DNA from: a virus
Direction: 5' to 3' (one strand)
Virus record (IMG/VR): IMGVR_UViG_3300030098_006570
Coordinates: 84,085 to 148,084 of that record
DNA: 64,000 nt
Part shown: in pieces, positions 25,221 to 63,922 of the stretch
Layout of the letters: every line of letters begins with the position of its first letter
Numbering within the stretch: the first letter of the stretch is position 1
The notes under the pieces: model-generated
Seen by the model: the letters and a program-made list of their open reading frames with translations, nothing else
Databases searched by the model: none
What the model was told of the DNA's origin: nothing
Position numbers and translations under genes: made by a program

Positions 25221-26540
25221 TCACAGATTTTGTGCAGCAAAAGTTGCAACCTTAGAACGCTCACCCTTATGAAGGGTAACATGCGAAGCCAGTTCAAACT
25301 TCTTGAATTTTTCTACCGCATGAGTCAAACCATTCGAGGTGGCATCGATGTAAACATTGTCAATCTGTTCAACATCGCCAGTCAGCACAATTTTGGTTCC
25401 TTCTCCTACTCTGGTTATTATAGTCTTTAGTTCGTGAGTTGTCAAGTTTTGAGATTCATCGATGATGATGAATGCATTAGAAATTGATCGGCCACGAATA
25501 TATGTCAGAGCTTCTATTTCTATTGTACCCTTTTGCATATAAATGTCAAGGGTTATTTTATCATTTCCCATCAAAAACTGGAGATTATCCTGGATGGGCA
25601 TAAGCCACGGAGACATTTTCTCCTCCATGGTTCCGGGCAGAAACCCTATGTCCTTTCCGAGGGGCTGTACGGGACGTGAGACGATTACACGCGTGTATTC
25701 CTGCTTGGACTCGTCTATGGTCTGCTCAAGGCCTGCAGCGATCGCACAGATCGTTTTACCGCTACCGGCCTTCCCAATGGCCGTAACAATTTGAATCTGA
25801 GGGTCCATCAAGGCATCCAGGAGGAATTGCTGTTCTTTATTGCGTGGCTTGATGCCCCATACTTTTTGTTTTCCTGTTATGAGTTGTTTCACCGGGGTGA
25901 CCGAATTAGTATATCGACCGAGCGCAGTCTTTTTTTCATTCGCATTAGAAACCAACATTACATACTGATTCGAATGGAGAGCGTCATTATCAAGATAAAC
26001 ATCTTCCCGTTCATAAAACCGGTCGATCGTTTGATCATCTACCAAGACTTGGGTATACCCAGTATAGATACTATCACTGTTGTCGACTATTTGATTATTA
26101 AGGAAGTCCTGAGACTCTAAACCCACTGCATCCGCAATGACCCGCATATTGATATCGCGCGATACCAGAATAACTTTGCGCGTATTTTCTCGCTGAGCTT
26201 TGAGGGCCGTTGCGATAATAAGATGATCTGGGACTTTGGAGTCTAGATCCTCCGGCAAATCTTCGGGCAAGAGTGCCGCTGCATTGATAGATTTGATAAT
26301 TCCCAATCCTTTGCGGATTCGGACCCCTTTCTGGAGTGATCCCGTAGCTCGCAAATCATCCCAGATGCGAATTATTTTACGTGCCTGGGCTCCTACAGGA
26401 TCCTGACGCTTTTTATGCTTGTCCACTTCCTCAAATACCTTGAGGGGAACGTGAATATCATTATTTTCAAATGCGTAGATACATTCTGCGTTTGTCAAAT
26501 AAACACTGGTATCTAAAACGTATATCTTTTTACGACTCAT
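25221..26540 (-). CDS. phoH: PIN-PhoH (PhoH2-type) ATPase
   Basis: PIN YVLDTSV; Walker A GKAGSGKT; GFLPG, RGRS, IIDESQN, GDVEQ. Confidence 0.93.
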   Translation of the reverse strand: MSRKKIYVLDTSVYLTNAECIYAFENNDIHVPLKVFEEVDKHKKRQDPVGAQARKIIRIWDDLRATGSLQKGVRIRKGLGIIKSINAAALLPEDLPEDLDSKVPDHLIIATALKAQRENTRKVILVSRDINMRVIADAVGLESQDFLNNQIVDNSDSIYTGYTQVLVDDQTIDRFYEREDVYLDNDALHSNQYVMLVSNANEKKTALGRYTNSVTPVKQLITGKQKVWGIKPRNKEQQFLLDALMDPQIQIVTAIGKAGSGKTICAIAAGLEQTIDESKQEYTRVIVSRPVQPLGKDIGFLPGTMEEKMSPWLMPIQDNLQFLMGNDKITLDIYMQKGTIEIEALTYIRGRSISNAFIIIDESQNLTTHELKTIITRVGEGTKIVLTGDVEQIDNVYIDATSNGLTHAVEKFKKFELASHVTLHKGERSKVATFAAQNL

Positions 26541-29783: not shown

Positions 29784-30050
29784 CTACTTCTTTCGTCGTT
29801 TCTTGGACAACTTAGCTTTCCGACGCTTCTTTTCTTCACGTTTAGCGATTGAGGGATCCGTGCGAGTCTTGACCGCATAGAACTTACGATTTGGGGGTCC
29901 TTGATAGTGGACCTTCACTTGGAGATCTTCTTGTCCTGCTAGTTCATTTCTCTTGGCGTCAGCGCCGTCGAATGTGGGGAAACGGCCCACGATATTCCAT
30001 GTTGGCCCGTCGGTGTGTTGCGGCGCCATTTCTACTTCTTCAGTACTCAT
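29784..30050 (-). CDS. Hypothetical protein with basic C-terminus
   Basis: Likely start MSTEE. Confidence 0.55.
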   Translation of the reverse strand: MSTEEVEMAPQHTDGPTWNIVGRFPTFDGADAKRNELAGQEDLQVKVHYQGPPNRKFYAVKTRTDPSIAKREEKKRRKAKLSKKRRKK

Positions 30051-30274
30051 CCTTTTTCCTTCCATAGATAAGTTGCATCCATTGGCCAATAAACATCTTG
30101 ACCAGTGTCTAATACTTGTATTTTATAGATTGTGATAGATTTGTCAAGTACTAATCCTACAAAAGTTCTTTTTCCGGCGTTAGCGTCTCTTTTGGCAACA
30201 TCCACACAGATGACCAGATCGCCTACCTCCGCGCTTTTTGTAGTCCTTCCGTATCCCAACCGCCCATCATCCAC
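30047..30274 (-). CDS. Small SH3/KOW-like protein
   Basis: EVGDLV...GLVL...YKIQV...YW pattern; start uncertain. Confidence 0.5.
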   Translation of the reverse strand: MDDGRLGYGRTTKSAEVGDLVICVDVAKRDANAGKRTFVGLVLDKSITIYKIQVLDTGQDVYWPMDATYLWKEKG

Positions 30275-30807
30275 TTTTCGTTCATGAGGTGATTAATCTT
30301 GTTAAAATGGAGAAAACCGAGGGCATGCCCTAGTTCGTGTTCGAGGACAGTCTCCCTTACATCTGGTCTTAAATAAATAACTGCGTATTCCACCTGGTTT
30401 GTTGTGTTGTCAATAAAGAAGTGCGTTTGTGCTAGAGCTGTCTCTTCCATTTTTACGCCCAAGGTCACCATATGGATTATGATATAACCTTTGGGAGTCT
30501 CGCTTAGACACTTATTGAGCGGATCATGTTTATATTGTGTATTATAAAAACGATATCCCAAATCTTTCCAGAAGCTTACAGCCTTATCAACCTGACTCTT
30601 TGTTACTGGTGCATGTTCGCAAACAATAACCGTGGGGGTTAGTCCCCATTTGGCAGCTTGCGGAGGCCTATCGTTTACTAAAGGTATTCTGTCATAGTTA
30701 CTAATATAGGGACCAGCAGAAGCCGGGACAGCTAGCAGTACTATTGACAAACTAAAAGAAACTACATAAACAAGTGTTCCTAGCGCTATCCGGATAGTAT
30801 CACTCAT
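30223..30807 (-). CDS. Matrixin-like metzincin metallopeptidase, exported
   Basis: Signal/TM segment; HELGHALGFLH plus Met-turn LMN. Confidence 0.8.
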   Translation of the reverse strand: MSDTIRIALGTLVYVVSFSLSIVLLAVPASAGPYISNYDRIPLVNDRPPQAAKWGLTPTVIVCEHAPVTKSQVDKAVSFWKDLGYRFYNTQYKHDPLNKCLSETPKGYIIIHMVTLGVKMEETALAQTHFFIDNTTNQVEYAVIYLRPDVRETVLEHELGHALGFLHFNKINHLMNEKWMMGGWDTEGLQKARR

Positions 30808-44959: not shown

Positions 44960-46198
44960 ATGAGCGTATTCCGCAAACACAAATCAATTGTCGACCGAGC
45001 CGCCAGTGACCGAATTCGTCATAAAAAGAAAATTGAAAAGGCAATCAAAGATTCTATCAAAGACGTTATTGCTGAAGAATCTATCATTGGCCAAAATGGC
45101 AAGAAAAAGATCCGAATTCCGGTCCGGGGCATCAAAGAATATCGCTTTATCTACGGAAATAACGAAAATAACAAAACTGTAGGCTCCGGAGGGCAGCATG
45201 GACTGAAAAGAGGTCAAAAAATCGGTCAAAAACGGGCTGACAAGGCCAAAGGCCAAGGAACGGGTAAGGCCAGTAACGAAAAAGGTGACCAATACTATGA
45301 TGTAGAAGTTACATTGGAAGAATTGGCTGAATATTTGTTCGCAGATCTAGAATTGCCGGATTTAGAGAAGAAACAATTCAAATTTATCTCTCACGAGACC
45401 ATCAAACGCCAAGGATACCGCTTTCAAGGCATCCGTCCGCGCCTCTCCAAGAAAGAAACGCTCAAAAGGAAGATTCGACGTCAGAAAATGGCGGAAAAAG
45501 CCGGAACCTATGACCCCGAGAGCGACGATCGCTTCCCCTTTCACAAGGATGACCTAAAATATCACCATATCAAACCCAAAGTTAAAGAAAACAGCTCTGC
45601 CGTCATCTTTTTCCTCATGGATGTATCGGGATCCATGTCTCAAGACCGAAAATACCTGGCGAGGAGCTTCTTCTTCCTCTTGTATCAGTTCTTGAACCAC
45701 CGATATGAGAATGTGGAGGTAGTTTTTATCTCTCACTCCACAAATGCGGAGCGTGTGACTGAAGAAGACTTCTTTAAAGTAGGTACATACGGTGGTACAA
45801 TTGTTTCATCTGCCTTGAACCGCCAAATCGAAATCGTAGAAAAAGAATTTCATCCAAATACATGGAATATTTACACTTTTTACTGCGGTGATGGAGAAAA
45901 TTGGTCTTCGGACAATGAAAAATGCATAGATTTGTTCAAGCAGATCAAAGATATAAGCCAACTAACAGCTTATTGCGAGATTAACGAGCACTATGGCAAC
46001 TTCGCCGAGGAGGGAAGCAACGAAGTTATGCCAGATGGGTACCCGTGGCCCTCATTTTCAGCTTGGAAGCAGGAAGAAAAGGACAATCTGTGGTCCAAAC
46101 TCACTCCCATCTGCGACAATAAGTTCAAAAAAGTGATGATTGGTCATACCGATCACATTTGGAAGGCCTTCAAATCTCTATTTGGTGGAGGAAAGTAA
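44960..46198 (+). CDS. yeaH: YeaH/YhbH (DUF444) VWA-domain protein
   Basis: DRIRH, IPVRGIKEYRF, MDVSGSM (MIDAS), GGTIVSSA, DGENW. Confidence 0.9.
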   Translation: MSVFRKHKSIVDRAASDRIRHKKKIEKAIKDSIKDVIAEESIIGQNGKKKIRIPVRGIKEYRFIYGNNENNKTVGSGGQHGLKRGQKIGQKRADKAKGQGTGKASNEKGDQYYDVEVTLEELAEYLFADLELPDLEKKQFKFISHETIKRQGYRFQGIRPRLSKKETLKRKIRRQKMAEKAGTYDPESDDRFPFHKDDLKYHHIKPKVKENSSAVIFFLMDVSGSMSQDRKYLARSFFFLLYQFLNHRYENVEVVFISHSTNAERVTEEDFFKVGTYGGTIVSSALNRQIEIVEKEFHPNTWNIYTFYCGDGENWSSDNEKCIDLFKQIKDISQLTAYCEINEHYGNFAEEGSNEVMPDGYPWPSFSAWKQEEKDNLWSKLTPICDNKFKKVMIGHTDHIWKAFKSLFGGGK

Positions 46199-46200
46199 CC

Positions 46201-47508
46201 ATGAGTGACTGGACTGAAGCAGATTTGCTTCATTGGGATGAAAAAATCATCAGGATAGCGGAGGATTTAGGACTCGATTGGCATCCTATTGATTATGAGA
46301 TCATCGATTACCAAGAAATGCTCGGCGCCATGGCTTACACCGGTCTACCAACGCATTATCGGCACTGGTCATACGGCAAAGAGTACGAGCGTACGCATAC
46401 GCTTTATAATATGGGCCAAACAGGGCTACCTTATGAGATGATTATCAACTCAAATCCGTCTATCGCATACTTGATGAGAGAAAATGCGCTCTACATTCAC
46501 CTCTTGACGATGGCTCACTGCGTTGGTCACTCGGATTTTTTCAAACAGAACCGTATGTTTGCCGAAACTAACCCGGAAAACATAATTGATAGCTTCAAGT
46601 CTTCTGCTAAATACGTACGACAATTGATCGAAGACCCGTCTATTGGTATTGATAAGGTGGAAAATATCCTAGACGCTGCACATTCTATCAAATATCAGGT
46701 ACCGCGTTTTCCTGGGATCAAATACAAAAGCCGCGATGAATTGATAGCGCTCGAAAAAAAGAAGATGATCGAGAATCCAAACTATTCTCCCAATCTCTCT
46801 AAAAATCCCCTGAGGCCAGAGTATAACCTTCTTCGCTTTATAGCAGAACACAGCAAAGGTCTGGAGGAATGGGAGAGGAACCTTATTCTTATTGTTGAGG
46901 AAAGTTCGAAATATTTCATCCCCCAGGCGCTCACGAAGGTGATGAATGAGGGGTGGGCCTGTACAATTCACTACAAGATTATTAATGAGCTAAACTTACC
47001 GGATAAGCTTCACCTGCCGTTTATCAAGCTTCACAATCAGGTAGTACGACCCCATCTCGGCCAACTTAACCCCTATCATTTAGGCTTCAAATTGTTTGAG
47101 AAAATTATCGAGAAGCAGGGTATGGAAGAGGCCATGATAGTACGAGAAGTTCACAACGATATTTCCTTCCTACGGTTCTATATGGACCAAGAGTTTATGG
47201 AGGAAATGAATTACTTTACATACTCCTTCAAAAAAACACAAAAAAATATTACAATAGATGATATCTCCGATGAAGATGGGTGGGAAAAAGTAAGAGACGA
47301 GTTAATTAGGAATATAGGACTTAACCGCGTACCAGTTATTTACGTGGACGAAGTAGAAAGAGACAACTCCTTGTGTTTGGTCCACGAACACGATGGCCGC
47401 GATCTCGACCTAGCGTATGCCCGCAAAGTATTCGAGCATATAAACACTTTATGGAAAGATAATGTCACTTTGACAACAATCGTGGAAAACGAAATATGGG
47501 AGTTTTAA
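46201..47508 (+). CDS. spoVR: SpoVR/YcgB family protein
   Basis: HWSYGK, YEMIINSNP, AHCVGHSDFFKQN, TKVMNEGWA, NPYHLG. Confidence 0.93.
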   Translation: MSDWTEADLLHWDEKIIRIAEDLGLDWHPIDYEIIDYQEMLGAMAYTGLPTHYRHWSYGKEYERTHTLYNMGQTGLPYEMIINSNPSIAYLMRENALYIHLLTMAHCVGHSDFFKQNRMFAETNPENIIDSFKSSAKYVRQLIEDPSIGIDKVENILDAAHSIKYQVPRFPGIKYKSRDELIALEKKKMIENPNYSPNLSKNPLRPEYNLLRFIAEHSKGLEEWERNLILIVEESSKYFIPQALTKVMNEGWACTIHYKIINELNLPDKLHLPFIKLHNQVVRPHLGQLNPYHLGFKLFEKIIEKQGMEEAMIVREVHNDISFLRFYMDQEFMEEMNYFTYSFKKTQKNITIDDISDEDGWEKVRDELIRNIGLNRVPVIYVDEVERDNSLCLVHEHDGRDLDLAYARKVFEHINTLWKDNVTLTTIVENEIWEF

Positions 47509-47511
47509 ATC

Positions 47512-49446
47512 ATGACCACAACAAATAAGTTTCTAGAAAGGATTCAGGAGCACCGAGATCTCAAGAAGGTAGAAAAATTTGAAGGATACCTTGGTGATTA
47601 CCTGGCGCTTCTGGAGGATAATAAAGAAATTGCAGCCCTAGCACACAGGCGCCTGTATGACCAGATCATGTCCGAAGGGCTAACTGTTCTTGATGAGACA
47701 GATCATCGGTGCAATAAGATCTTTGATGGAGAAGAGGTTAAAATCTATAACTATTTTTCTGACCATTTCTTTGGAATGGAGCGGCCCCTAGAGAAGGTCA
47801 TGCGCTTCTTGCGCTCGGCAGCTATGAAAGGCGAAGAGAGTCGTCAGGTACTTTTACTTCTTGGTCCGGTAGGCGCAGGAAAATCCGCTCTTGTCGAGCA
47901 CATCAAGAGCGCCCTAGAACAGTGCGCTCCGGTTTTTGCATTAGACGGTTGCCCCATCCGCGAGGAGCCGCTTCATCTTATCCCTCGCTCACTGCGCGCG
48001 GAGTTTGAAGAGGAGTACGGCATCAAGATTGAAGGAGACCTTTGTCCAGTATGCCGGCACAGACTTATCAATGAGTTTGAAGGAGACTTCACGAAGTTCC
48101 CAATTACGCAGTCTTCCTTCTCTGTGCGAGGCCGCAAGGGTGTTGGGGTTGTTCCTCCCATGGATCCGAACACCCAGGATACAAGCCTTCTCATTGGCTC
48201 TGAGGATATTTCAAAGCTAGACCTGTATCCGGAGGACGACCCAAGAGTTCTTTCGCTCAACGGAGCGTTCAACGTTGGTAACCGAGGCATTGTTGAGTTC
48301 GTTGAGGTTTTCAAGAACGAGATTGAGTTCCTTCATACCATGATTACCGCCACCCAGGAGAAGAATGTTCCTTCCCCCGGTAAGCAAGCGATGATTTATT
48401 TTGATGGTGTCATTCTCGCTCACTGCAATGAAGCCGAGTGGAACAAGTTCAAGGCTGAACATACTAACGAAGCCATCCTTGACCGTATCGTGCGTGTTAA
48501 TGTTCCTTACACGCTTGAGTTCGAGCAGGAGGTCAAGATTTACAAGAAGCTAATTGGGCGCTCCGACTTCGATTCTCATATCGCCCCTCATACCCTTGAG
48601 GTTGCTGCGATGTTCGCGGTCCTCTCCCGCCTGAAGCCTTCCAACAAAGTCGATGCATTGACCAAGATGAAGATCTACAACGGTCAGGAGATTGTCGAGA
48701 AGGGTCTTATCAAGAAAGTGGACATCAAGGATCTCCGCGAAGAGGTTGAAGATGAGGGTATGACTGGTATCTCCACTCGTTTCATCATGAAGGCCATTGA
48801 TGCCGCCCTAGCTGATTCGTCCAAGAATATGATCACCCCCATATCGATTCGAGATGCACTAGTCAAACAGGTCAAGGAACAGATTGTCAACGCTGATGAC
48901 AGAAAGCATTTCCTTCAGTTCCTGCAGAAGACGCTTCACGAAGAATATCTTTCCATTCTTGAGAAGGAAATCACCAAGGCTTTCGTTACTGCCTATGAAG
49001 AGCAGGCAGAGTCCTTGTTCAACAACTACCTCGATCACGCCGAGGCTTACGTCAATAACACAAAGGTCAAGGATCGAGTAACAAACGAAGAGTTCGAGGC
49101 CGACGAAAAGTTTATGGCTAGCATCGAAGAGCAGATCGGTATCAAGGGCTCTGCGAAGAATAACTTCCGGGCTGATATCACTTCCTACATGTTTGCTAAG
49201 TTGCGTCGCGGGGAGTCAATTGATTGGCGATCCTATGGTCCTCTTAGAGAGGCAATCGAAAACAAGCTTGTTTCGTCGGTACGCGATATTTCTCGTATTG
49301 TCACCAAGAGCAAGAGTCGAGATGTAAAGCAGCAGAAGAAATTCAATGCGATGGTTGAAACTCTAATCGAAAATTATGGTTACAATGAAGACTCCGCCGA
49401 AGAAGTCATCAAGTTTGCGAGTAATAATCTATGGCGTGATTCGTAA
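47512..49446 (+). CDS. prkA: PrkA/YeaG AAA+ ATPase (serine kinase family)
   Basis: LLGPVGAGKS, CPIREEPL, NRGIVEFVEVFK, EAILDR, GISTRF. Confidence 0.93.
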   Translation: MTTTNKFLERIQEHRDLKKVEKFEGYLGDYLALLEDNKEIAALAHRRLYDQIMSEGLTVLDETDHRCNKIFDGEEVKIYNYFSDHFFGMERPLEKVMRFLRSAAMKGEESRQVLLLLGPVGAGKSALVEHIKSALEQCAPVFALDGCPIREEPLHLIPRSLRAEFEEEYGIKIEGDLCPVCRHRLINEFEGDFTKFPITQSSFSVRGRKGVGVVPPMDPNTQDTSLLIGSEDISKLDLYPEDDPRVLSLNGAFNVGNRGIVEFVEVFKNEIEFLHTMITATQEKNVPSPGKQAMIYFDGVILAHCNEAEWNKFKAEHTNEAILDRIVRVNVPYTLEFEQEVKIYKKLIGRSDFDSHIAPHTLEVAAMFAVLSRLKPSNKVDALTKMKIYNGQEIVEKGLIKKVDIKDLREEVEDEGMTGISTRFIMKAIDAALADSSKNMITPISIRDALVKQVKEQIVNADDRKHFLQFLQKTLHEEYLSILEKEITKAFVTAYEEQAESLFNNYLDHAEAYVNNTKVKDRVTNEEFEADEKFMASIEEQIGIKGSAKNNFRADITSYMFAKLRRGESIDWRSYGPLREAIENKLVSSVRDISRIVTKSKSRDVKQQKKFNAMVETLIENYGYNEDSAEEVIKFASNNLWRDS

Positions 49447-49469: not shown

Positions 49470-49503
49470 AAGGGGGCCCTTAGGGGTCCCCTTTCATTTT
49501 TTT
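49470..49503 (+). terminator. Intrinsic terminator between convergent genes
   Basis: AGGGGGCCC/GGGTCCCCT hairpin followed by T-rich run. Confidence 0.65.
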
Positions 49504-49677
49504 ATCTTCTATAAGAACCAAGTTACCAAATTTTACCCATTGATACGTTTCTACCGGATGGGTGAATAAAACCCGCACCCAAGGTTCGTGGGGGCTAAGA
49601 TCAGAGAACACTTCGGTTACAATACCCATGGCTTGCGCGTTGGAATTTTTAAGTGTGACAAGATCCCCTGGCTTCAT
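49480..49677 (-). CDS. Small SH3/KOW-like protein (MKPGDLV)
   Basis: Same pattern as the 61-64 kb array. Confidence 0.7.
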   Translation of the reverse strand: MKPGDLVTLKNSNAQAMGIVTEVFSDLSPHEPWVRVLFTHPVETYQWVKFGNLVLIEDKKMKGDP

Positions 49678-52205: not shown

Positions 52206-53006
52206 CTAAGTCACAGGCGCATACTCTACAGGTCTAGACAATACCTTCAAGCGGTAGTCAATGACATCACTCATAAAGTAGCAGTTGGACCTGGGTAGCA
52301 TGTACTCGTCAACGCTTGTCGTGTTAGCAGTCCAATGCACTTTCACATAACCGTGTTCCTCTACCTCTCGCACAATACCCAGGACACTTCCTGTATAATC
52401 TTGAGTCATTTTTCCTGCAATAATTTCTTGAATTGTCACAAGATCTCCTGGCAAGATTTCTGCTTCGAATTTTTGTACCTTTTTCTGCGAAGGATTTTTA
52501 TTGAGCGGATAATTCCTCTGCCTCGCTTGATCGCGGCGTTGTCGCGGGCCGATTTTCTGAGACTTTCCTGCTGTGATTTTCTGTGAAGATTTCTTTGTTG
52601 TACTCGCTGCCTTTTTCTTGCCGCCCCATGTAGTCCAACAGGCATTCGCACAAACCACGTTGCCACTTTTTGCTGTGAACTTTTTTGCCTTACAATGCTT
52701 GCATGTCTTTACAAACTTTTCTGCTGCTTCCTGCGCCCGAATGGTCTTGACAAGTCCTGTGTTGGTCGTGAAAACTTCTGTGGTTATCTCGCGCCACTGC
52801 TTCTGTCGATTGATGTAGCAGAGCTTCACCCCAACCTTGCCAACGATTTTTCCTGTCTTGCCGTCAATGCCGGAATCAACCACAACGCGCACAAACTTTG
52901 CGCTGGGATGCTTGCGGCTATAAATGATGCTTGTGCCCTTCCCATTCTTCTTGTGGGGAAAGAAGCCTTCGGCCTTGAGGATTGCTTTTCGCTGGACTAC
53001 TGTCAT
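52206..53006 (-). CDS. Basic Zn-finger protein with C-terminal SH3-like domain
   Basis: CKHC...CANAC; ILPGDLV...LGIV...VKVHW. Confidence 0.6.
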   Translation of the reverse strand: MTVVQRKAILKAEGFFPHKKNGKGTSIIYSRKHPSAKFVRVVVDSGIDGKTGKIVGKVGVKLCYINRQKQWREITTEVFTTNTGLVKTIRAQEAAEKFVKTCKHCKAKKFTAKSGNVVCANACWTTWGGKKKAASTTKKSSQKITAGKSQKIGPRQRRDQARQRNYPLNKNPSQKKVQKFEAEILPGDLVTIQEIIAGKMTQDYTGSVLGIVREVEEHGYVKVHWTANTTSVDEYMLPRSNCYFMSDVIDYRLKVLSRPVEYAPVT

Positions 53007-53007
53007 T

Positions 53008-53220
53008 TTATACCTCGCTTATAATCTTGATGTCTGAGACGTACTCTTCGGACGTACATCCACCGTTCCAACTGAACCATTTTACCTGCACAACGTAAGC
53101 CCCGTTTGCATTCACCTGGATAATCCTGGTTACGGTTCCGGGGTCGCCCTCCAAAGTGATAGATTTCACAATGTCGCCAACTCGGCAGATTGGGTTTCCC
53201 CATGCGTCTTGCTTTCTCAT
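53008..53220 (-). CDS. Small SH3/KOW-like protein
   Basis: RVGDIV...GTV...VQVKW; GGAGG RBS. Confidence 0.6.
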   Translation of the reverse strand: MRKQDAWGNPICRVGDIVKSITLEGDPGTVTRIIQVNANGAYVVQVKWFSWNGGCTSEEYVSDIKIISEV

Positions 53221-53486
53221 CGTATTCCTCCCTTGTCTCGCCAAATCTCTTCGGCGAATCGCTTTGCGAAACGGAGACTGTAGCCGTTTCCATCAACTTC
53301 CTCTTCCTTCACTGCTGCGTTGGCGAAGTTGCGGAGGCACTTGATGAACTCGATTTTGCCAAAGGCTCGCTTGTTGGCTCGATGGAGGCTTTGGCCCATG
53401 TAGACGGCTGCAAGGTGTTCTACCATTTTGATGGTGTTTTCCATTCCGTTGCGGTCTTCGGTGTCAAAGACGATAACCATCTTCAT
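53217..53486 (-). CDS. Hypothetical protein
   Basis: Coupled ORF. Confidence 0.55.
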   Translation of the reverse strand: MKMVIVFDTEDRNGMENTIKMVEHLAAVYMGQSLHRANKRAFGKIEFIKCLRNFANAAVKEEEVDGNGYSLRFAKRFAEEIWRDKGGIR

Positions 53487-60602: not shown

Positions 60603-60898
60603 TCTGTCTCTACTATAGCACCGATTGCGGTGCTTGTCAAGTCGTTTTCTTCATTCATCGAATCCATCTCGATGAAGTAATCTTCAATAGCATTCTGCAC
60701 AAAACCAATGCCGCGTGGGCCGAGGATACCGAGAGGAATGTGCTCCGGCATTGTACTGGGGTTGAATAGGTCGTAGACCATTACGGTCCAGCGTCCATCC
60801 CAAACACAGAGATAACGGTCGCGACCAACAATGACGAGTTCCGCGCCATCGACGGCGTTCAAAACATCCAAAGCATTCCAGGCAATTTCTTCAAGCAT
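60599..60898 (-). CDS. Hypothetical protein
   Basis: Coupled ORF. Confidence 0.5.
   Translation of the reverse strand: MLEEIAWNALDVLNAVDGAELVIVGRDRYLCVWDGRWTVMVYDLFNPSTMPEHIPLGILGPRGIGFVQNAIEDYFIEMDSMNEENDLTSTAIGAIVETE
60612..60640 (-). promoter_or_regulatory. Early sigma70 promoter inside the upstream gene end
   Basis: TTGACA-N17-TATAGT. Confidence 0.65.
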
Positions 60899-61245
60899 TA
60901 CAGCTTACCCTTGTGATTAGAGTTTCCAAAGTTCTCGCCAACCTGACGAAACTTCATCCCGGTCATTGCGGTATTAGATCCTGAGAGTGCTGCGCTCTTA
61001 CCCTTGTGCATTCCAATGTTGTTGTTCCATGCCTTGCGGTATTTCTCGCGGTCTTCATTGGACTCAAACGCAAGAATGGAAACACCGCCCATCTTGCCGT
61101 CAGCGGAAGCACAACCAAGATACTTTACAGCAGTCTCGGTTCCCAATTCTTCAACACAGTCGGCGCACTCGTTAATACGACCACCAACCTTGCGCTTTCT
61201 TTGGGACTTAGGATTGAAATCAACTTCGCAGTGAATACAGTTCAT
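60898..61245 (-). CDS. Zn-ribbon hypothetical protein
   Basis: CIHC...CADC; GGAGG RBS. Confidence 0.6.
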   Translation of the reverse strand: MNCIHCEVDFNPKSQRKRKVGGRINECADCVEELGTETAVKYLGCASADGKMGGVSILAFESNEDREKYRKAWNNNIGMHKGKSAALSGSNTAMTGMKFRQVGENFGNSNHKGKL

Positions 61246-61259
61246 CTGACCTCCAGTGT

Positions 61260-61487
61260 CTATACACTCGCACACGATGACACGATTGTCAAGTCATCTT
61301 CGTCCATCCAGCATCCGTCGCCGGGTCCAAAATGAACCCAATAGGAAGGAACATAAATACGCTTCCATTTCTCCAGTATAATTCCAACTTTGCCAGCCAA
61401 GTCCTTACCACTAATCGCGGAGGCACCCAAAGTTTCCTTATTGACTTTCACCATATCACCAACATCATACACTGGTGTCACCTCCAT
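61260..61487 (-). CDS. Small SH3/KOW-like protein
   Basis: DVGDMV...VGII...YWVHF...W. Confidence 0.65.
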   Translation of the reverse strand: MEVTPVYDVGDMVKVNKETLGASAISGKDLAGKVGIILEKWKRIYVPSYWVHFGPGDGCWMDEDDLTIVSSCASV

Positions 61488-61496
61488 CGTGCATAT

Positions 61497-61525
61497 ATTA
61501 TAGCACAGCATAGCTACTCTGTCAA
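61497..61525 (-). promoter_or_regulatory. Early sigma70 promoter (perfect consensus)
   Basis: TTGACA-N17-TATAAT. Confidence 0.8.
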
Positions 61526-61714
61526 GGAGTCTTCACTAATCTCGAAATGTTCCTTCTCTGTAAAAATGTACCTCTCCGGGTTGAGGCCACCGATCATTCT
61601 TACCACACACCGCCTCTCAAGAACCGTGCAGACCTCAAACCGATACTTTCGATAGCTGGGAATCCAATCTTCTGGTGCACTCGGGGCGACCTTTACAATG
61701 TCACCCGGCTTCAT
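61514..61714 (-). CDS. Small SH3/KOW-like protein (MKPGDIV)
   Basis: Array member. Confidence 0.65.
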   Translation of the reverse strand: MKPGDIVKVAPSAPEDWIPSYRKYRFEVCTVLERRCVVRMIGGLNPERYIFTEKEHFEISEDSLTE

Positions 61715-61895
61715 CGGCCAGTTCCAGATTGGTTTTGCTGATAACCCACAGCCACTCCGGGCGGGAACCAATCATCATTAGTTCAACCCCCGTTTCAGTA
61801 GGAAAATCAAGCACCCGAAATGTCTTATCCCTGTAGTCCTCCATCCAATCTAGTGGGGGATTTTCGATCAACTTTACAACATCACCGATCTTCAT
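61701..61895 (-). CDS. Small SH3/KOW-like protein (MKIGDVV)
   Basis: Array member. Confidence 0.7.
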   Translation of the reverse strand: MKIGDVVKLIENPPLDWMEDYRDKTFRVLDFPTETGVELMMIGSRPEWLWVISKTNLELADEAG

Positions 61896-62064
61896 TTACT
61901 AACTCCAAGTATTCAGCAGGATGCGTTGATCGCTCCGTGTTACCTTTTCCATCCCACCACTCTACCGTTTTGTGCTGGGCAGTTCCAGGGATTTCCGTGA
62001 CAATATATCCAAGCCATGTTGGAAAGCCGTCACCCTTATACCTTACCAAGTCACCGACCTTCAC
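61882..62064 (-). CDS. Small SH3/KOW-like protein (MKVGDLV)
   Basis: Array member. Confidence 0.7.
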   Translation of the reverse strand: MKVGDLVRYKGDGFPTWLGYIVTEIPGTAQHKTVEWWDGKGNTERSTHPAEYLELVNEDR

Positions 62065-62251
62065 TTACAACCTCCAGTAAGTCTATCTTACTCGGCATCA
62101 CGCTCTTGATACCACTCCACTTCACTAGGGCGGTTGGAACAACTCGATAATGAATCCCCACCACGATACCCACGCGCTTACTCTGATTGAGCCACGCGGT
62201 TCCCTTCGGGTACATCTTTTCGCCATACTTTACCAAGTCACCGACTTTCAT
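62051..62251 (-). CDS. Small SH3/KOW-like protein (MKVGDLV)
   Basis: Array member. Confidence 0.7.
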   Translation of the reverse strand: MKVGDLVKYGEKMYPKGTAWLNQSKRVGIVVGIHYRVVPTALVKWSGIKSVMPSKIDLLEVVSEGR

Positions 62252-62337
62252 TTTTCATCCTTCGGCGGAGCGCCCAAAAACCAAACCAAACCATAAAATA
62301 CAACTGTGACGGCCCAACTTATTAGATGGTGCTTCAT
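62248..62337 (-). CDS. Unannotated 29-aa membrane peptide
   Basis: MKHHLISWAVTVVFYGLVWFLGAPPKDEK; ATGA overlaps at both ends. Confidence 0.5.
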   Translation of the reverse strand: MKHHLISWAVTVVFYGLVWFLGAPPKDEK

Positions 62338-62561
62338 TGCATAATCTCCATCTGCCCTTGATATAAAGATTCCTCAATCATTTCAGGGCTGTGATGACTC
62401 ACGGTCTTGCTGATGGCCCACGCAATATGATAGTGTCCTTCTCGGTTGACGGCGAGTTTGGTCACAATCCCCAATTCATCAATGTCGGCGCGCTCGTAAG
62501 CAATGTAGCCCCCATGCCACCGGACCAATGTTCCAATTCTAAAATCAGCGTGGGTTTGCAT
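62334..62561 (-). CDS. Small SH3/KOW-like protein
   Basis: FRIGTLVRW...LGIV...YHIAW. Confidence 0.6.
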   Translation of the reverse strand: MQTHADFRIGTLVRWHGGYIAYERADIDELGIVTKLAVNREGHYHIAWAISKTVSHHSPEMIEESLYQGQMEIMQ

Positions 62562-62733
62562 AGGACAGAATCTCCAAAGTGTCGCGCCGGGTGTAAACGT
62601 CGTAGGACTCGCCCTTAGCTGCATTATCAAAAAAGCGCACCCAAACATGGATACCTTCGACTCCTACAATATATCCAGCGCCCTCAACTATGCGGGATCT
62701 TACAACATCTCCAACTTTAGGCTTCTTTCGCAC
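62545..62733 (-). CDS. Small SH3/KOW-like protein
   Basis: KVGDVV...GYIV...VWVRF...LEILS. Confidence 0.65.
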   Translation of the reverse strand: MRKKPKVGDVVRSRIVEGAGYIVGVEGIHVWVRFFDNAAKGESYDVYTRRDTLEILSYANPR

Positions 62734-62938
62734 GATGCACCGTTATTCCCTTGTCCACTTCCCAGCGTCTCATTTCGTCAAAGTAATAGTGGTATATCAG
62801 CTCATGGCAATCCACAAATTTAACGTGAACGCCGAAGTCATCAAACATACCATCTCGTTGAACCCGAATGATGATTCCTATCTCTCTTCCACTTCGCTCG
62901 TGAAATTCAATCAAATCGCCGGGGTTGTATTCGCTCAT
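62717..62938 (-). CDS. Small SH3/KOW-like protein
   Basis: NPGDLI...IGII...VHVKF. Confidence 0.65.
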   Translation of the reverse strand: MSEYNPGDLIEFHERSGREIGIIIRVQRDGMFDDFGVHVKFVDCHELIYHYYFDEMRRWEVDKGITVHRAKEA

Positions 62939-62947
62939 CGTGTCTAG

Positions 62948-62975
62948 AGTATAGCACACGGACTGCAAAAGTCAA
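62948..62975 (-). promoter_or_regulatory. Early sigma70 promoter
   Basis: TTGACT-N16-TATACT with TG extension. Confidence 0.6.
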
Positions 62976-62978
62976 TAC

Positions 62979-63185
62979 CTAATCTGGAATCCTCAAGTCG
63001 TCAATGTGGGACCAAGTATGCTTTCCGTCAGCGGTATAAACTTTATATTCTGCGGTGCCGTCCACGAAGCCTCTGTCATCTGTGATAACCCCCACTACAT
63101 CGGTGAAGACCCATTTAGGCTTACCTGTTTGCGGGGCAAAGTTGTACCTTCCGGTTCGTAATATTACTAAATCACCGACTTTCAT
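62979..63185 (-). CDS. Small SH3/KOW-like protein (MKVGDLV)
   Basis: Array member. Confidence 0.7.
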   Translation of the reverse strand: MKVGDLVILRTGRYNFAPQTGKPKWVFTDVVGVITDDRGFVDGTAEYKVYTADGKHTWSHIDDLRIPD

Positions 63186-63384
63186 TGCTACTCACTAGCC
63201 GCAAGCATGCTCCACTCCACCACCCTTCGTTATTTGCAGTGTGCCATACAACATAACATTCGCCATATACTTTGCCGACTTCTTTGAGGGACGCGGGGCG
63301 CAGTCGGACAACTGTCCCAAGTTGGCGCTCGCGTTCTGCATAGGTATGACTGCCTATGTATTCTACCAAGTCACCGACTTTCAT
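63172..63384 (-). CDS. Small SH3/KOW-like protein (MKVGDLV)
   Basis: Array member. Confidence 0.7.
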   Translation of the reverse strand: MKVGDLVEYIGSHTYAERERQLGTVVRLRPASLKEVGKVYGECYVVWHTANNEGWWSGACLRLVSSNESR

Positions 63385-63553
63385 TGATTACCTTCAGCAT
63401 CTTTATGCGATGAGCCATTGTGCCCTCAACACCATGCCACTGAACCACAGCGGTTGGCACAACTCGATTATGAAGTTCCACCACAATACCCAAGCGTCCC
63501 CACACGATGCTTTCTGGCACCCTGGTGATTTCTACCAAATCACCGACTTGCAC
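63371..63553 (-). CDS. Small SH3/KOW-like protein (MQVGDLV)
   Basis: Array member. Confidence 0.7.
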   Translation of the reverse strand: MQVGDLVEITRVPESIVWGRLGIVVELHNRVVPTAVVQWHGVEGTMAHRIKMLKVINESR

Positions 63554-63728
63554 TGATTACCTCCACATCCCAATCCAGAGGGTCGAAGATTCGCTTCTTT
63601 CCGTCTCCATTACACACGACAGAAATGGCACCCCACTGAGGCCCCAGGACAAGTATGCCGAAATAACGGGTATCGGGGTCACCCATACACTCTTTGTGGG
63701 TTACCACTACCAAATCACCAACTCTCAT
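63540..63728 (-). CDS. Small SH3/KOW-like protein (MRVGDLV)
   Basis: Array member. Confidence 0.7.
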   Translation of the reverse strand: MRVGDLVVVTHKECMGDPDTRYFGILVLGPQWGAISVVCNGDGKKRIFDPLDWDVEVISASR

Positions 63729-63742
63729 GGTCCTATCGTACA

Positions 63743-63922
63743 TCACTCTTCCATTGAAAGGATTTCAAAGTTTTCCAAAGGATGCCACGCATTTTCATGA
63801 TCTCCCGCGAACTGGACATACTCCCCGCGATTGCTGCACTTGTATCCGGTAACAATCTTCATAATCATTGAGCAGTCGCGCACAAGCGCACCAATCATAG
63901 GCATACCACGACTCAGTGTCAT
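63743..63922 (-). CDS. Unannotated 59-aa SH3-like protein
   Basis: Read by hand: MTLSRGMPMIGALVRD...YVQF...WHPLENFEILSMEE; AAGGA RBS. Confidence 0.55.
   Translation of the reverse strand: MTLSRGMPMIGALVRDCSMIMKIVTGYKCSNRGEYVQFAGDHENAWHPLENFEILSMEE

Follow-up and report, generated by a model that had tools for sequence, protein, structure and literature searches.

The window, the whole 64,000-nucleotide stretch analysed here, carries near its end an array of 13 small ORFs from a single protein family, all on the minus strand between 61260 and 63922. With their most plausible starts they encode 53–75 residues, and every one was matched by a family profile (E from 3e-15 to 3e-4) whose building set left out copies 6 and 8. 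The 13 related ORFs listed in a first-pass annotation are all present on this strand and all recognised by the profile. Allowing no more than one mismatch, we found the start motif RTGMARNNNGGTGAYNTNGT nine times in the window, compared with 0.05 matches expected from shuffled sequence. Eight of these matches lie where the annotation had placed them (61714, 61895, 62064, 62251, 63185, 63384, 63553 and 63728), and the ninth is at 49677.

Copy 13 (63743–63904) is the first array gene in this contig. It encodes 53 residues from the ATG at 63904, with an alternative ATG at 63922, and matches the profile at E = 4e-10; its ortholog in a related phage locus, L021, begins at the equivalent ATG (dN/dS 0.19). 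A 14-nt spacer leads to copy 12 (63540–63728), which starts with MRVGDLV. Copies 12, 11 (63371–63553), 10 (63172–63384) and 9 (62979–63185) are then joined by exact 14-nt overlaps at 63540–63553, 63371–63384 and 63172–63185. Copy 11 is a paralog of copy 5, the closest L021 relative of copy 10 sits at a different site, and copy 9, the last gene of this sub-operon, served as the anchor for the population comparison described below. The spacer before copy 8 holds a sigma-70-type promoter on the same strand (62948–62975; TTGACT, 16 nt, TATACT, with a TG), which is kept in L021.

Copy 8 (62717–62938) is a divergent member (E = 1e-5), and in most relatives unrelated members take its place. It overlaps copy 7 (62545–62733) by 17 nt, as copy 7 does copy 6 (62334–62561, start ATG 62561). 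An unrelated hydrophobic mini-ORF of 29 residues (62248–62337, minus strand), 28 of which are identical in L021, is linked by ATGA overlaps to copy 6 on one side and copy 5 on the other. From copy 5 (62051–62251), whose L021 ortholog has 95% amino acid identity, exact 14-nt overlaps at 62051–62064, 61882–61895 and 61701–61714 connect copy 4 (61882–62064), copy 3 (61701–61895) and copy 2 (61514–61714, starting with MKPGDIV). The final codons of copy 2 contain the −35 box of a second, perfect sigma-70-type promoter (61497–61525, minus strand; TTGACA, 17 nt, TATAAT, with a TG), which stands before copy 1 (61260–61487). Copy 1 is missing from L021, as is the adjoining 125-aa gene. The promoter before copy 1 scores 12/12 against the sigma-70 type and the one before copy 8 scores 10/12; together, the two would drive early expression.

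Predicted fold and distribution of the family

AlphaFold models of copy 5 (pLDDT 88.2) and of copy 3, the most divergent member (pLDDT 87.8), have an identical five-strand, strongly bent antiparallel topology of the SH3-like small beta-barrel type, which agrees with the common barrel that the first-pass annotation had proposed as a check by structure prediction. The best solved structural matches were the KOW domains of Spt5 and NusG together with PsaE, NdhO, NdhS and PetP, all of them SH3-like barrels, and the top match was the Spt5 KOW domain of Methanocaldococcus jannaschii (Z 8.6, rmsd 1.7 over 55 residues); both models were built on one shared alignment, and small barrels score only middling in such structural comparisons. 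The models predict that the array proteins share an SH3/KOW-like barrel fold. The first strand (M-K-V-G-D-L-V) and the last (L-E-V-I-S/N) are conserved, and the loops between them vary in sequence and length.

The five-stranded barrel is also that of KOW and other SH3-like small barrels (NusG/Spt5, PsaE, NdhO, NdhS, PetP and Bacillus subtilis YorP), and the N-terminal G-D-x-V ... G-x-V pattern of the family resembles the KOW motif. The family profile gave weak matches to Spt5/NusG KOW chains (E 1e-4 to 1e-3). Unlike those KOW domains, however, the cassettes are stand-alone proteins of 50–75 residues found in phage sequence only, and the Pfam KOW model (PF00467) matched 0 of 109 members at E ≤ 0.01. 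Single cassettes had no match above threshold in Pfam or PHROGs.

The family is very large (8160 clusters at 50% identity) and unannotated, and its matches in the Atlas and cluster searches were to unnamed viral proteins only. In blastn and tblastn searches of 50,697 GenBank phage records, the array, two cassettes and the flanking 125-aa gene were unmatched, and a scan of prokaryote genomes from 185,579 species, at limited sensitivity, found no relative. No loci were returned when the downstream 99-aa gene or copy 7 served as query. The start motif was not found in any paper by full-text literature search, and nothing pertinent came from a keyword search. Microcystis phage Mel-JY01 and Flavobacterium phage immuto are cultured phages with capsid proteins among the closest matches; the family was not found in either.

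The junction read in two frames

In the overlapping junction, the final strand of gene n is encoded together with a Shine-Dalgarno site, the start of gene n+1 and the gene n stop. The L-E-V-I codons spell an extended Shine-Dalgarno site, TGGAGGTnATC, 6 nt ahead of the next start, and the overlap is fixed at 14 nt because the downstream G-D codons (GGTGA) supply the upstream stop. At the six dual-frame joints of the array, the upstream gene reads (E/A)-x-(R/G)-stop and the downstream gene M-(K/Q)-x-G-D over exactly 14 nt, just as had been described from the sequence. The same exact overlap is found in 108 of 162 family genes across 27 loci, from which we derived the junction consensus TGGAGGTnATCA-RTG-AAAGTCGGTGAYTTGGTA; a minority of family junctions are of the ATGA type. 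Since the Shine-Dalgarno site, start and stop all sit in it, a block of about 33 nt closes one protein and opens the next.

Codon choice within this block shows that the ribosome site is maintained. For the Glu of L-E-V, overlapped genes use GAG in 84 cases and GAA in 6, compared with 133 and 182 in gene interiors (p 7e-20) and with 10 and 7 in terminal genes (p 7e-4); these counts are not fully independent, because the paralogs are related. The third position of the adjacent Val codon is randomised. The Glu bias is selection at a synonymous site, maintaining the Shine-Dalgarno sequence, which this phage uses ahead of 52% of its long ORFs (vs. 11% of random positions). Together with the overlap, the selected Shine-Dalgarno site points to probable translational coupling at the junctions. 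Coupled overlapping genes of the ATGA/TGATG kind, known from phage and bacterial operons, likewise have overlapping stops and starts and a Shine-Dalgarno site inside the upstream gene. The junction differs from these in keeping one fixed 14-nt overlap in distant genomes, linked to conserved protein strands on either side.

Since each gene lies in the +1 frame relative to the preceding one, the junction could instead be a site of programmed frameshifting that yields multi-domain polyproteins rather than separate small proteins, and in-frame two-domain fusions are in fact known in databases (P0006) and in relatives (L011 and L016). Yet every gene has its own start codon and a strong, selected Shine-Dalgarno site, the terminal genes have normal ends, and no slippery site was visible in the consensus. 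We consider frameshifting highly improbable.

The first-pass annotation had read the junction as both a translational coupler and a recombination handle. The translational role is borne out by the selected Shine-Dalgarno site, and the role in exchange by the comparisons that follow, but selection for a dedicated recombination sequence is not: the free synonymous sites (−5, +14, +17 and +20) vary. Nor was a palindrome, a −35/−10 pair or a stem-loop seen in the consensus.

Cassette exchange between related phages

Between the array and L021, adjacent genes have diverged to very different degrees. Copy 5 is identical at 29–30 of 30 nt in each 30-nt stretch (dS 0.10). The interior of copy 4, in contrast, is a distant allele of its L021 counterpart, near random in identity and saturated at synonymous sites, between junction blocks that are fully identical on both sides. 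In place of copies 12-11-10, L021 has five other cassettes, and homology picks up again inside TCGGTGAT. One cassette, D, is joined to copy 9 directly in one contig, via cassette E in L021, and via an unrelated cassette in two further contigs, with every breakpoint inside a junction. Among 22 contigs with an ortholog of copy 9, 11 different cassettes lie upstream of it, all through the same 14-nt overlap. More generally, the neighbours of orthologous cassettes differ across the 27 loci, and cassette-length indels and replacements among related phages terminate within the junction. Comparing arrays in this way shows whole cassettes being gained, lost, exchanged for others and moved to new positions at the junction; insertion, deletion and shuffling there had been predicted.

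Could such a pattern arise without exchange? An old tandem duplication followed by differential loss and divergence might leave a junction preserved only for its two strands and ribosome site, with no special role in exchange. The junction shows no nucleotide conservation past coding and Shine-Dalgarno needs, and junction identity inside this genome is modest (mean 66% among blocks in the window, with exact shared runs of 10–22 nt), so that any exchange inside this genome would depend on microhomology. Moreover, surviving rearrangements must leave genes intact, which biases breakpoints to gene ends, and since selection conserves no part but the junction, any model would place apparent breakpoints there; the breakpoint argument is weakened to that extent. 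However, loss alone would not give the cassette patterns observed, and passive descent is disfavoured on that account. Neighbouring cassettes compared between the same two genomes differ by more than ten-fold in synonymous divergence (0.10 to saturated), one ortholog is adjoined by eleven different cassettes, the same cassettes occupy different positions in different genomes, and unrelated members replace cassettes, at cassette length, between identical flanks. Descent without exchange thus seems unlikely to us.

The terms 'hypervariable' and 'diversifying', which had been applied to the array, are not supported in the sense of ongoing hypermutation. The diverse interiors and conserved ends of the cassettes are what targeted hypermutation in place, by a diversity-generating retroelement or similar system, would produce. 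Orthologous interiors, though, are under purifying selection (dN/dS 0.08–0.34), which also marks the cassettes as real genes; their differences comprise indels and every type of substitution, and the population variants of one cassette are 62–100% identical, as in ordinary genes. Such a retroelement pairs a reverse transcriptase with template and variable repeats, and neither this record nor four complete-rated relatives gave a match for a reverse transcriptase (PF00078). We regard hypermutation as scarcely credible here.

A site-specific cassette system of the integron type, in which the junction would be the site of a phage-encoded recombinase, resembles the array in outward form: one repeated site, and single-gene cassettes in a chain, gained and lost singly. 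Integrons, however, combine an IntI tyrosine recombinase with attC sites. A tyrosine recombinase (PF00589) was not found in this record or in the four complete-rated, array-carrying relatives, while all 14 of 14 control genomes were matched, and the junction consensus, which is coding sequence, has no visible attC-like palindrome. The cassettes here are also paralogs, each carrying the translation signals for the next gene. An integron-type system is very doubtful, and a dedicated enzyme for cassette change, whether reverse transcriptase or tyrosine integrase, finds no support in these genomes. What happens at the junction resembles ordinary recombination by homology or microhomology rather than a dedicated site-specific system.

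The closest published analogue is the modular shuffling of small early genes in T4-type phages, which intergenic promoter-terminator cassettes called PeSLs (promoter-early stem-loops) mediate within hyperplastic regions (Arbiol et al., 2010, PMC2839356; Comeau et al., 2014, PMC4122927). In both cases a T4-like myovirus has small, non-essential genes gathered in a hyperplastic region that carries sigma-70-type promoters, and a short intergene repeat marks the ends of indels and replacements among relatives, consistent with homologous recombination; here, one such junction has 11 neighbour types. In contrast to the intergenic promoter and stem-loop terminator of a PeSL, the repeat here is a two-frame coding sequence in which a ribosome-binding site, a start and a stop are embedded, and promoter-like sites occur only at 62948–62975 and 61497–61525. 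The shuffled genes here also all come from one protein family. What would be new, relative to PeSL shuffling, is that the exchange point lies in coding sequence and not between genes.

Starting from what the comparisons establish directly, namely the family, its modelled fold, the Shine-Dalgarno selection and the exchange at junctions, we favour the following reading, to which we give a probability of about 0.7. An uncultured marine T4-like ('far-T4') myovirus would here have a hyperplastic, early-type region filled with paralogs from a single SH3/KOW-like family of 50–75 residues that is confined to phages, with each gene a self-contained, shufflable cassette. The block of about 33 nt, ending one protein and starting translation of the next, probably with coupling, would be the sole sequence common to all cassettes and also the site of homologous or microhomology recombination. 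The phage encodes a UvsX-like recombinase, which may be the enzyme. Recombination at junctions would duplicate, delete, replace and re-order whole genes with their frames intact. One short coding block would then provide a protein strand, a ribosome site, a start, a stop and a point of exchange, and the genes of a single, very large and unannotated phage family would be interchangeable parts across a clade of abundant marine phages. For the turnover of phage accessory gene repertoires, this is a concrete model that can be tested.

At a guess, in line with a suggestion of the first-pass annotation, the cassette proteins bind host or defence proteins. A broader and more tentative version, on balance rather doubtful, holds that the arrays form a shared, recombination-ready library of KOW/SH3-like binders directed early at variable host targets, in which the junction is an evolved 'plug'. 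Such a library might be used by the whole clade of 185–200-kb marine T4-like phages, its targets could include defence proteins or the transcription or translation machinery, and the plug would let a cassette from whichever relative is co-infecting slot in as a working gene. The barrel with its variable loops would be a compact natural scaffold, and should the targets prove to be factors in host defence or takeover, many new inhibitors would be available from the arrays.

Dispersed members and the window edge

The four additional copies reported outside the array proved real, with weaker profile matches than the array, and all are on the minus strand. The member at 49480–49677 starts with MKPGDLV (E = 4e-9). 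In the open frame at 53008–53292, whose start is uncertain, the domain occupies the C-terminal 57 residues (E = 2e-6). A 266-aa protein (52206–53006) has a weak family-like C-terminal domain at residues 191–233 or thereabouts (E = 6e-4), and a weak member lies at 30047–30292 (E = 1e-3). The final 64 nt of the window (G-D-V-V-V...) were considered as a 14th array member and turned out to encode the C-terminal end of a 126-aa protein unrelated to the family.

The record itself, a linear fragment, is 82% complete; its start truncates an IscU-like gene, and its end coincides with the window edge. That the array might continue past this edge had been raised, and an identical metagenome contig (L036) shows that it does: two unrelated genes are followed by eight more members of the family.

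The array and its predicted fold

The minus strand of 61260-63922 carries 13 small ORFs (copies 1-13, copy 1 at 61260 and copy 13 nearest the window edge) that align on a common skeleton of M-K-V-G-D-L-V, a central G-(I/L)-V, V-x-W and L-E-V-(I/V)-(S/N), with unrelated intervening sequence. The family profile, built without two of these copies, matched 13/13 ORFs (E 3e-15 to 3e-4), the two omitted copies included, and detected four dispersed, weaker copies elsewhere in the window. The start motif occurs 9 times in the window vs. 0.05 expected, and at six junctions (coding blocks of about 33 nt that end one gene and start the next) the genes overlap by exactly 14 nt. Elsewhere in the array, genes meet at two 17-nt overlaps, a single short spacer, two further spacers carrying sigma-70-type promoters (one a perfect TTGACA-17-TATAAT), and the ATGA overlaps that join a 29-aa hydrophobic mini-ORF, unrelated to the family, to both neighbours (62248-62337, minus strand; one predicted membrane helix). 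In L021, the closest relative, 28/29 mini-ORF residues are identical despite divergence of the adjoining cassettes. The gene immediately downstream of the array (60898-61275, minus strand) encodes a zinc-ribbon-like protein of 125 aa with two CxxC pairs, which had no Pfam match and is kept at 47-64% identity beside arrays of this kind in 20 IMG/VR contigs.

Metagenome contig L036 (4.5 kb) matches the final 1671 nt of the record at 100% identity and extends 2861 nt beyond it, through an unrelated 126-aa gene, an unrelated 89-aa gene and, after these, eight additional family members. Thus, the array does continue past the window edge, as the first-pass annotation had supposed, with an interruption. 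An array boundary at an IscU-like ORF, reached by joining the contig ends, was rejected: the record (148,084 bp, the window being its final 64 kb) is a linear fragment of about 82% completeness, and the join is not real.

AlphaFold models of copy 5 (pLDDT 88.2) and of copy 3, the most divergent (pLDDT 87.8), were confident, placed five strands in the same order and fell in the same fold class by Foldseek, consistent with the common barrel proposed earlier rather than with unrelated folds. The top match in an exhaustive structural comparison was an archaeal Spt5 KOW domain (Z 8.6, rmsd 1.7 over 55 residues), followed by other KOW domains, PsaE, NdhO, NdhS, PetP, and Tudor and chromo domains. 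Because the sequence profile matched Spt5 and NusG KOW chains weakly and a Pfam search with family members matched no family, the predicted fold is called SH3/KOW-like, with no claim of KOW homology. Conserved positions are restricted to strands 1, 2, 3 and 5; it is the loops, chiefly those joining strands 1-2 and 2-3, that vary in length and sequence.

At E 1e-3 the family comprises 8160 clusters (50% identity), and every named match is a metagenomic 'hypothetical protein'. Searches of 50,697 GenBank phage records and of the nearest cultured phages found no member, nor did a scan of 185,579 prokaryote genomes at limited sensitivity. Five array-bearing genomes (105-203 kb, four rated complete) share the capsid lineage of this phage at 60-77% identity, two of them with 23 and 18 profile matches.

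The junction as a translation start signal

In 27 loci, the overlap with the following gene is exactly 14 nt for 108/162 family genes. The junction consensus from -12 to +20, TGGAGGTnATCA-RTG-AAAGTCGGTGAYTTGGTA, is read as L-E-V-I-(N/S)-E-S-R-stop in the upstream frame and as M-K-V-G-D-L-V in the downstream frame. The E-S-R tail is confined to genes that have a successor; terminal ones end shortly past L-E-V-I. In-frame fusions of two family domains (locus L011, 8862-9278; locus L016, 11739-11996; database protein P0006) show the outcome of a third-frame junction.

The L-E-V-I codons spell GGAGGTnATC, ending 6 nt before the start codon, which we take to be a nearly full complement of the conserved 16S rRNA 3' end. 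The Glu codon of L-E-V is GAG in 84 overlapped genes and GAA in 6, compared with 133 and 182 in gene interiors (p 7e-20) and 10 and 7 in truly terminal genes (p 7e-4). Since the third position of the adjoining Val codon is randomised, GAG is not simply inherited. Given this excess at a synonymous site, the randomised Val and the general use of Shine-Dalgarno sites by this phage, the junction is maintained by selection as a signal for starting translation, and we can reasonably infer that initiation would be coupled to the upstream ribosome. The start-signal half of the coupler proposed in the first-pass annotation is thereby supported. The remaining free synonymous sites of the block vary, so there is no sign of selection on it as a recombination sequence.

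A second kind of dual use occurs in terminal cassettes, which often finish L-L-T-T or S-L-T-E; the codons supply the -35 box (TTGACA) for the promoter of the operon that follows (for example L001, 7649-7825; L003, 7538-7717; L019, 629-823; also window 61514-61525).

Cassette exchange between related phages

The 194-kb genome L021, rated complete, is collinear with the window downstream of the array (76-84% identity), while the array region is an identity mosaic. Copy 5 and the mini-ORF match at 29-30/30 nt per 30-nt stretch; next to them, copy 4 has a near-random interior with a 12-nt indel, between fully identical junction blocks. Synonymous divergence is 0.10 for copy 5, intermediate (0.4-1.3) elsewhere and saturated for copy 4, a span that points to different histories of adjoining cassettes rather than faster protein evolution. 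L021 has five other cassettes in place of copies 12-11-10, with homology resuming within TCGGTGAT; in place of copy 8 another gene stands behind a conserved promoter, and neither copy 1 nor the neighbouring 125-aa gene is present.

Scanning metagenomes with copy 9 returned 24 contigs with orthologs (62-100% identity). In 22 of these, the gene overlapping copy 9 by 14 nt is one of 11 unrelated types, including orthologs of copies 4 and 5, which lie elsewhere in this phage. A family member termed cassette D leads into copy 9 directly in L039, and via cassette E in L021, whereas L046 and L050 have a different cassette in between. The difference begins and ends within the junction motif, and this alignment shows the exchange event directly. 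Among the IMG/VR loci, a given cassette type has varying neighbours, and recent tandem duplicates occur. Cassette order is therefore not fixed among relatives, nor do breakpoints avoid the junction, and the proposal that cassettes are inserted, deleted or shuffled there holds.

That the junction serves a dedicated recombination system does not follow. Breakpoints would be expected at the junction whatever the mechanism, since no other stretch is conserved. Because junction blocks within this genome are only 66% identical (exact runs of 10-22 nt), no tyrosine integrase or reverse transcriptase was found in this record or in four relatives rated complete, and the phage encodes a UvsX-like recombinase, we read the exchange as probably ordinary homologous or microhomology recombination, which the repeated junction would favour incidentally, and not as a dedicated system. 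Nor are the cassettes 'hypervariable' or 'diversifying' in place: dN/dS of orthologous interiors is 0.08-0.34, and the diversity lies between old paralogs, each conserved.

As outlined in two reports (PMC2839356, PMC4122927), T4-type phages exchange hyperplastic-region genes at promoter-early stem-loop cassettes (PeSLs), which are repeated promoter-terminator elements lying between genes. The junction likewise acts as a gene-exchange point between related phages, but it is not a PeSL, since it has neither the promoter nor the stem-loop of that description and is coding in two frames. A literature search found no paper describing this family or junction.

Possible function and other phage genes

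The size of the proteins, a KOW/SH3-like scaffold with variable loops, phage-only distribution, promoter type and high turnover lead to a tentative best guess, with perhaps one chance in four, that they are small binders acting in the cytoplasm and produced early in infection. By its tail sheath and major head protein the phage is a myovirus; its capsid protein resembles that of T4-like phages distantly (35-48% identity to Microcystis phage Mel-JY01, Flavobacterium phage immuto, Rhodothermus phage RM378 and uncultured giant phages).

A full-length PrkA-type serine kinase (AAA_PrkA and PrkA domains, E 3e-145), unusual phage cargo, closes a three-gene block at window 44960-49446 (plus strand), and an N-terminal PIN domain is fused to a PhoH-like protein at 25221-26540 (minus strand). 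Outside the window, at genome 3-191 (minus strand), an IscU-like gene truncated by the contig start is followed by an IscA/HesB-like gene and ribonucleotide reductase, placing iron-sulfur assembly genes in a phage.
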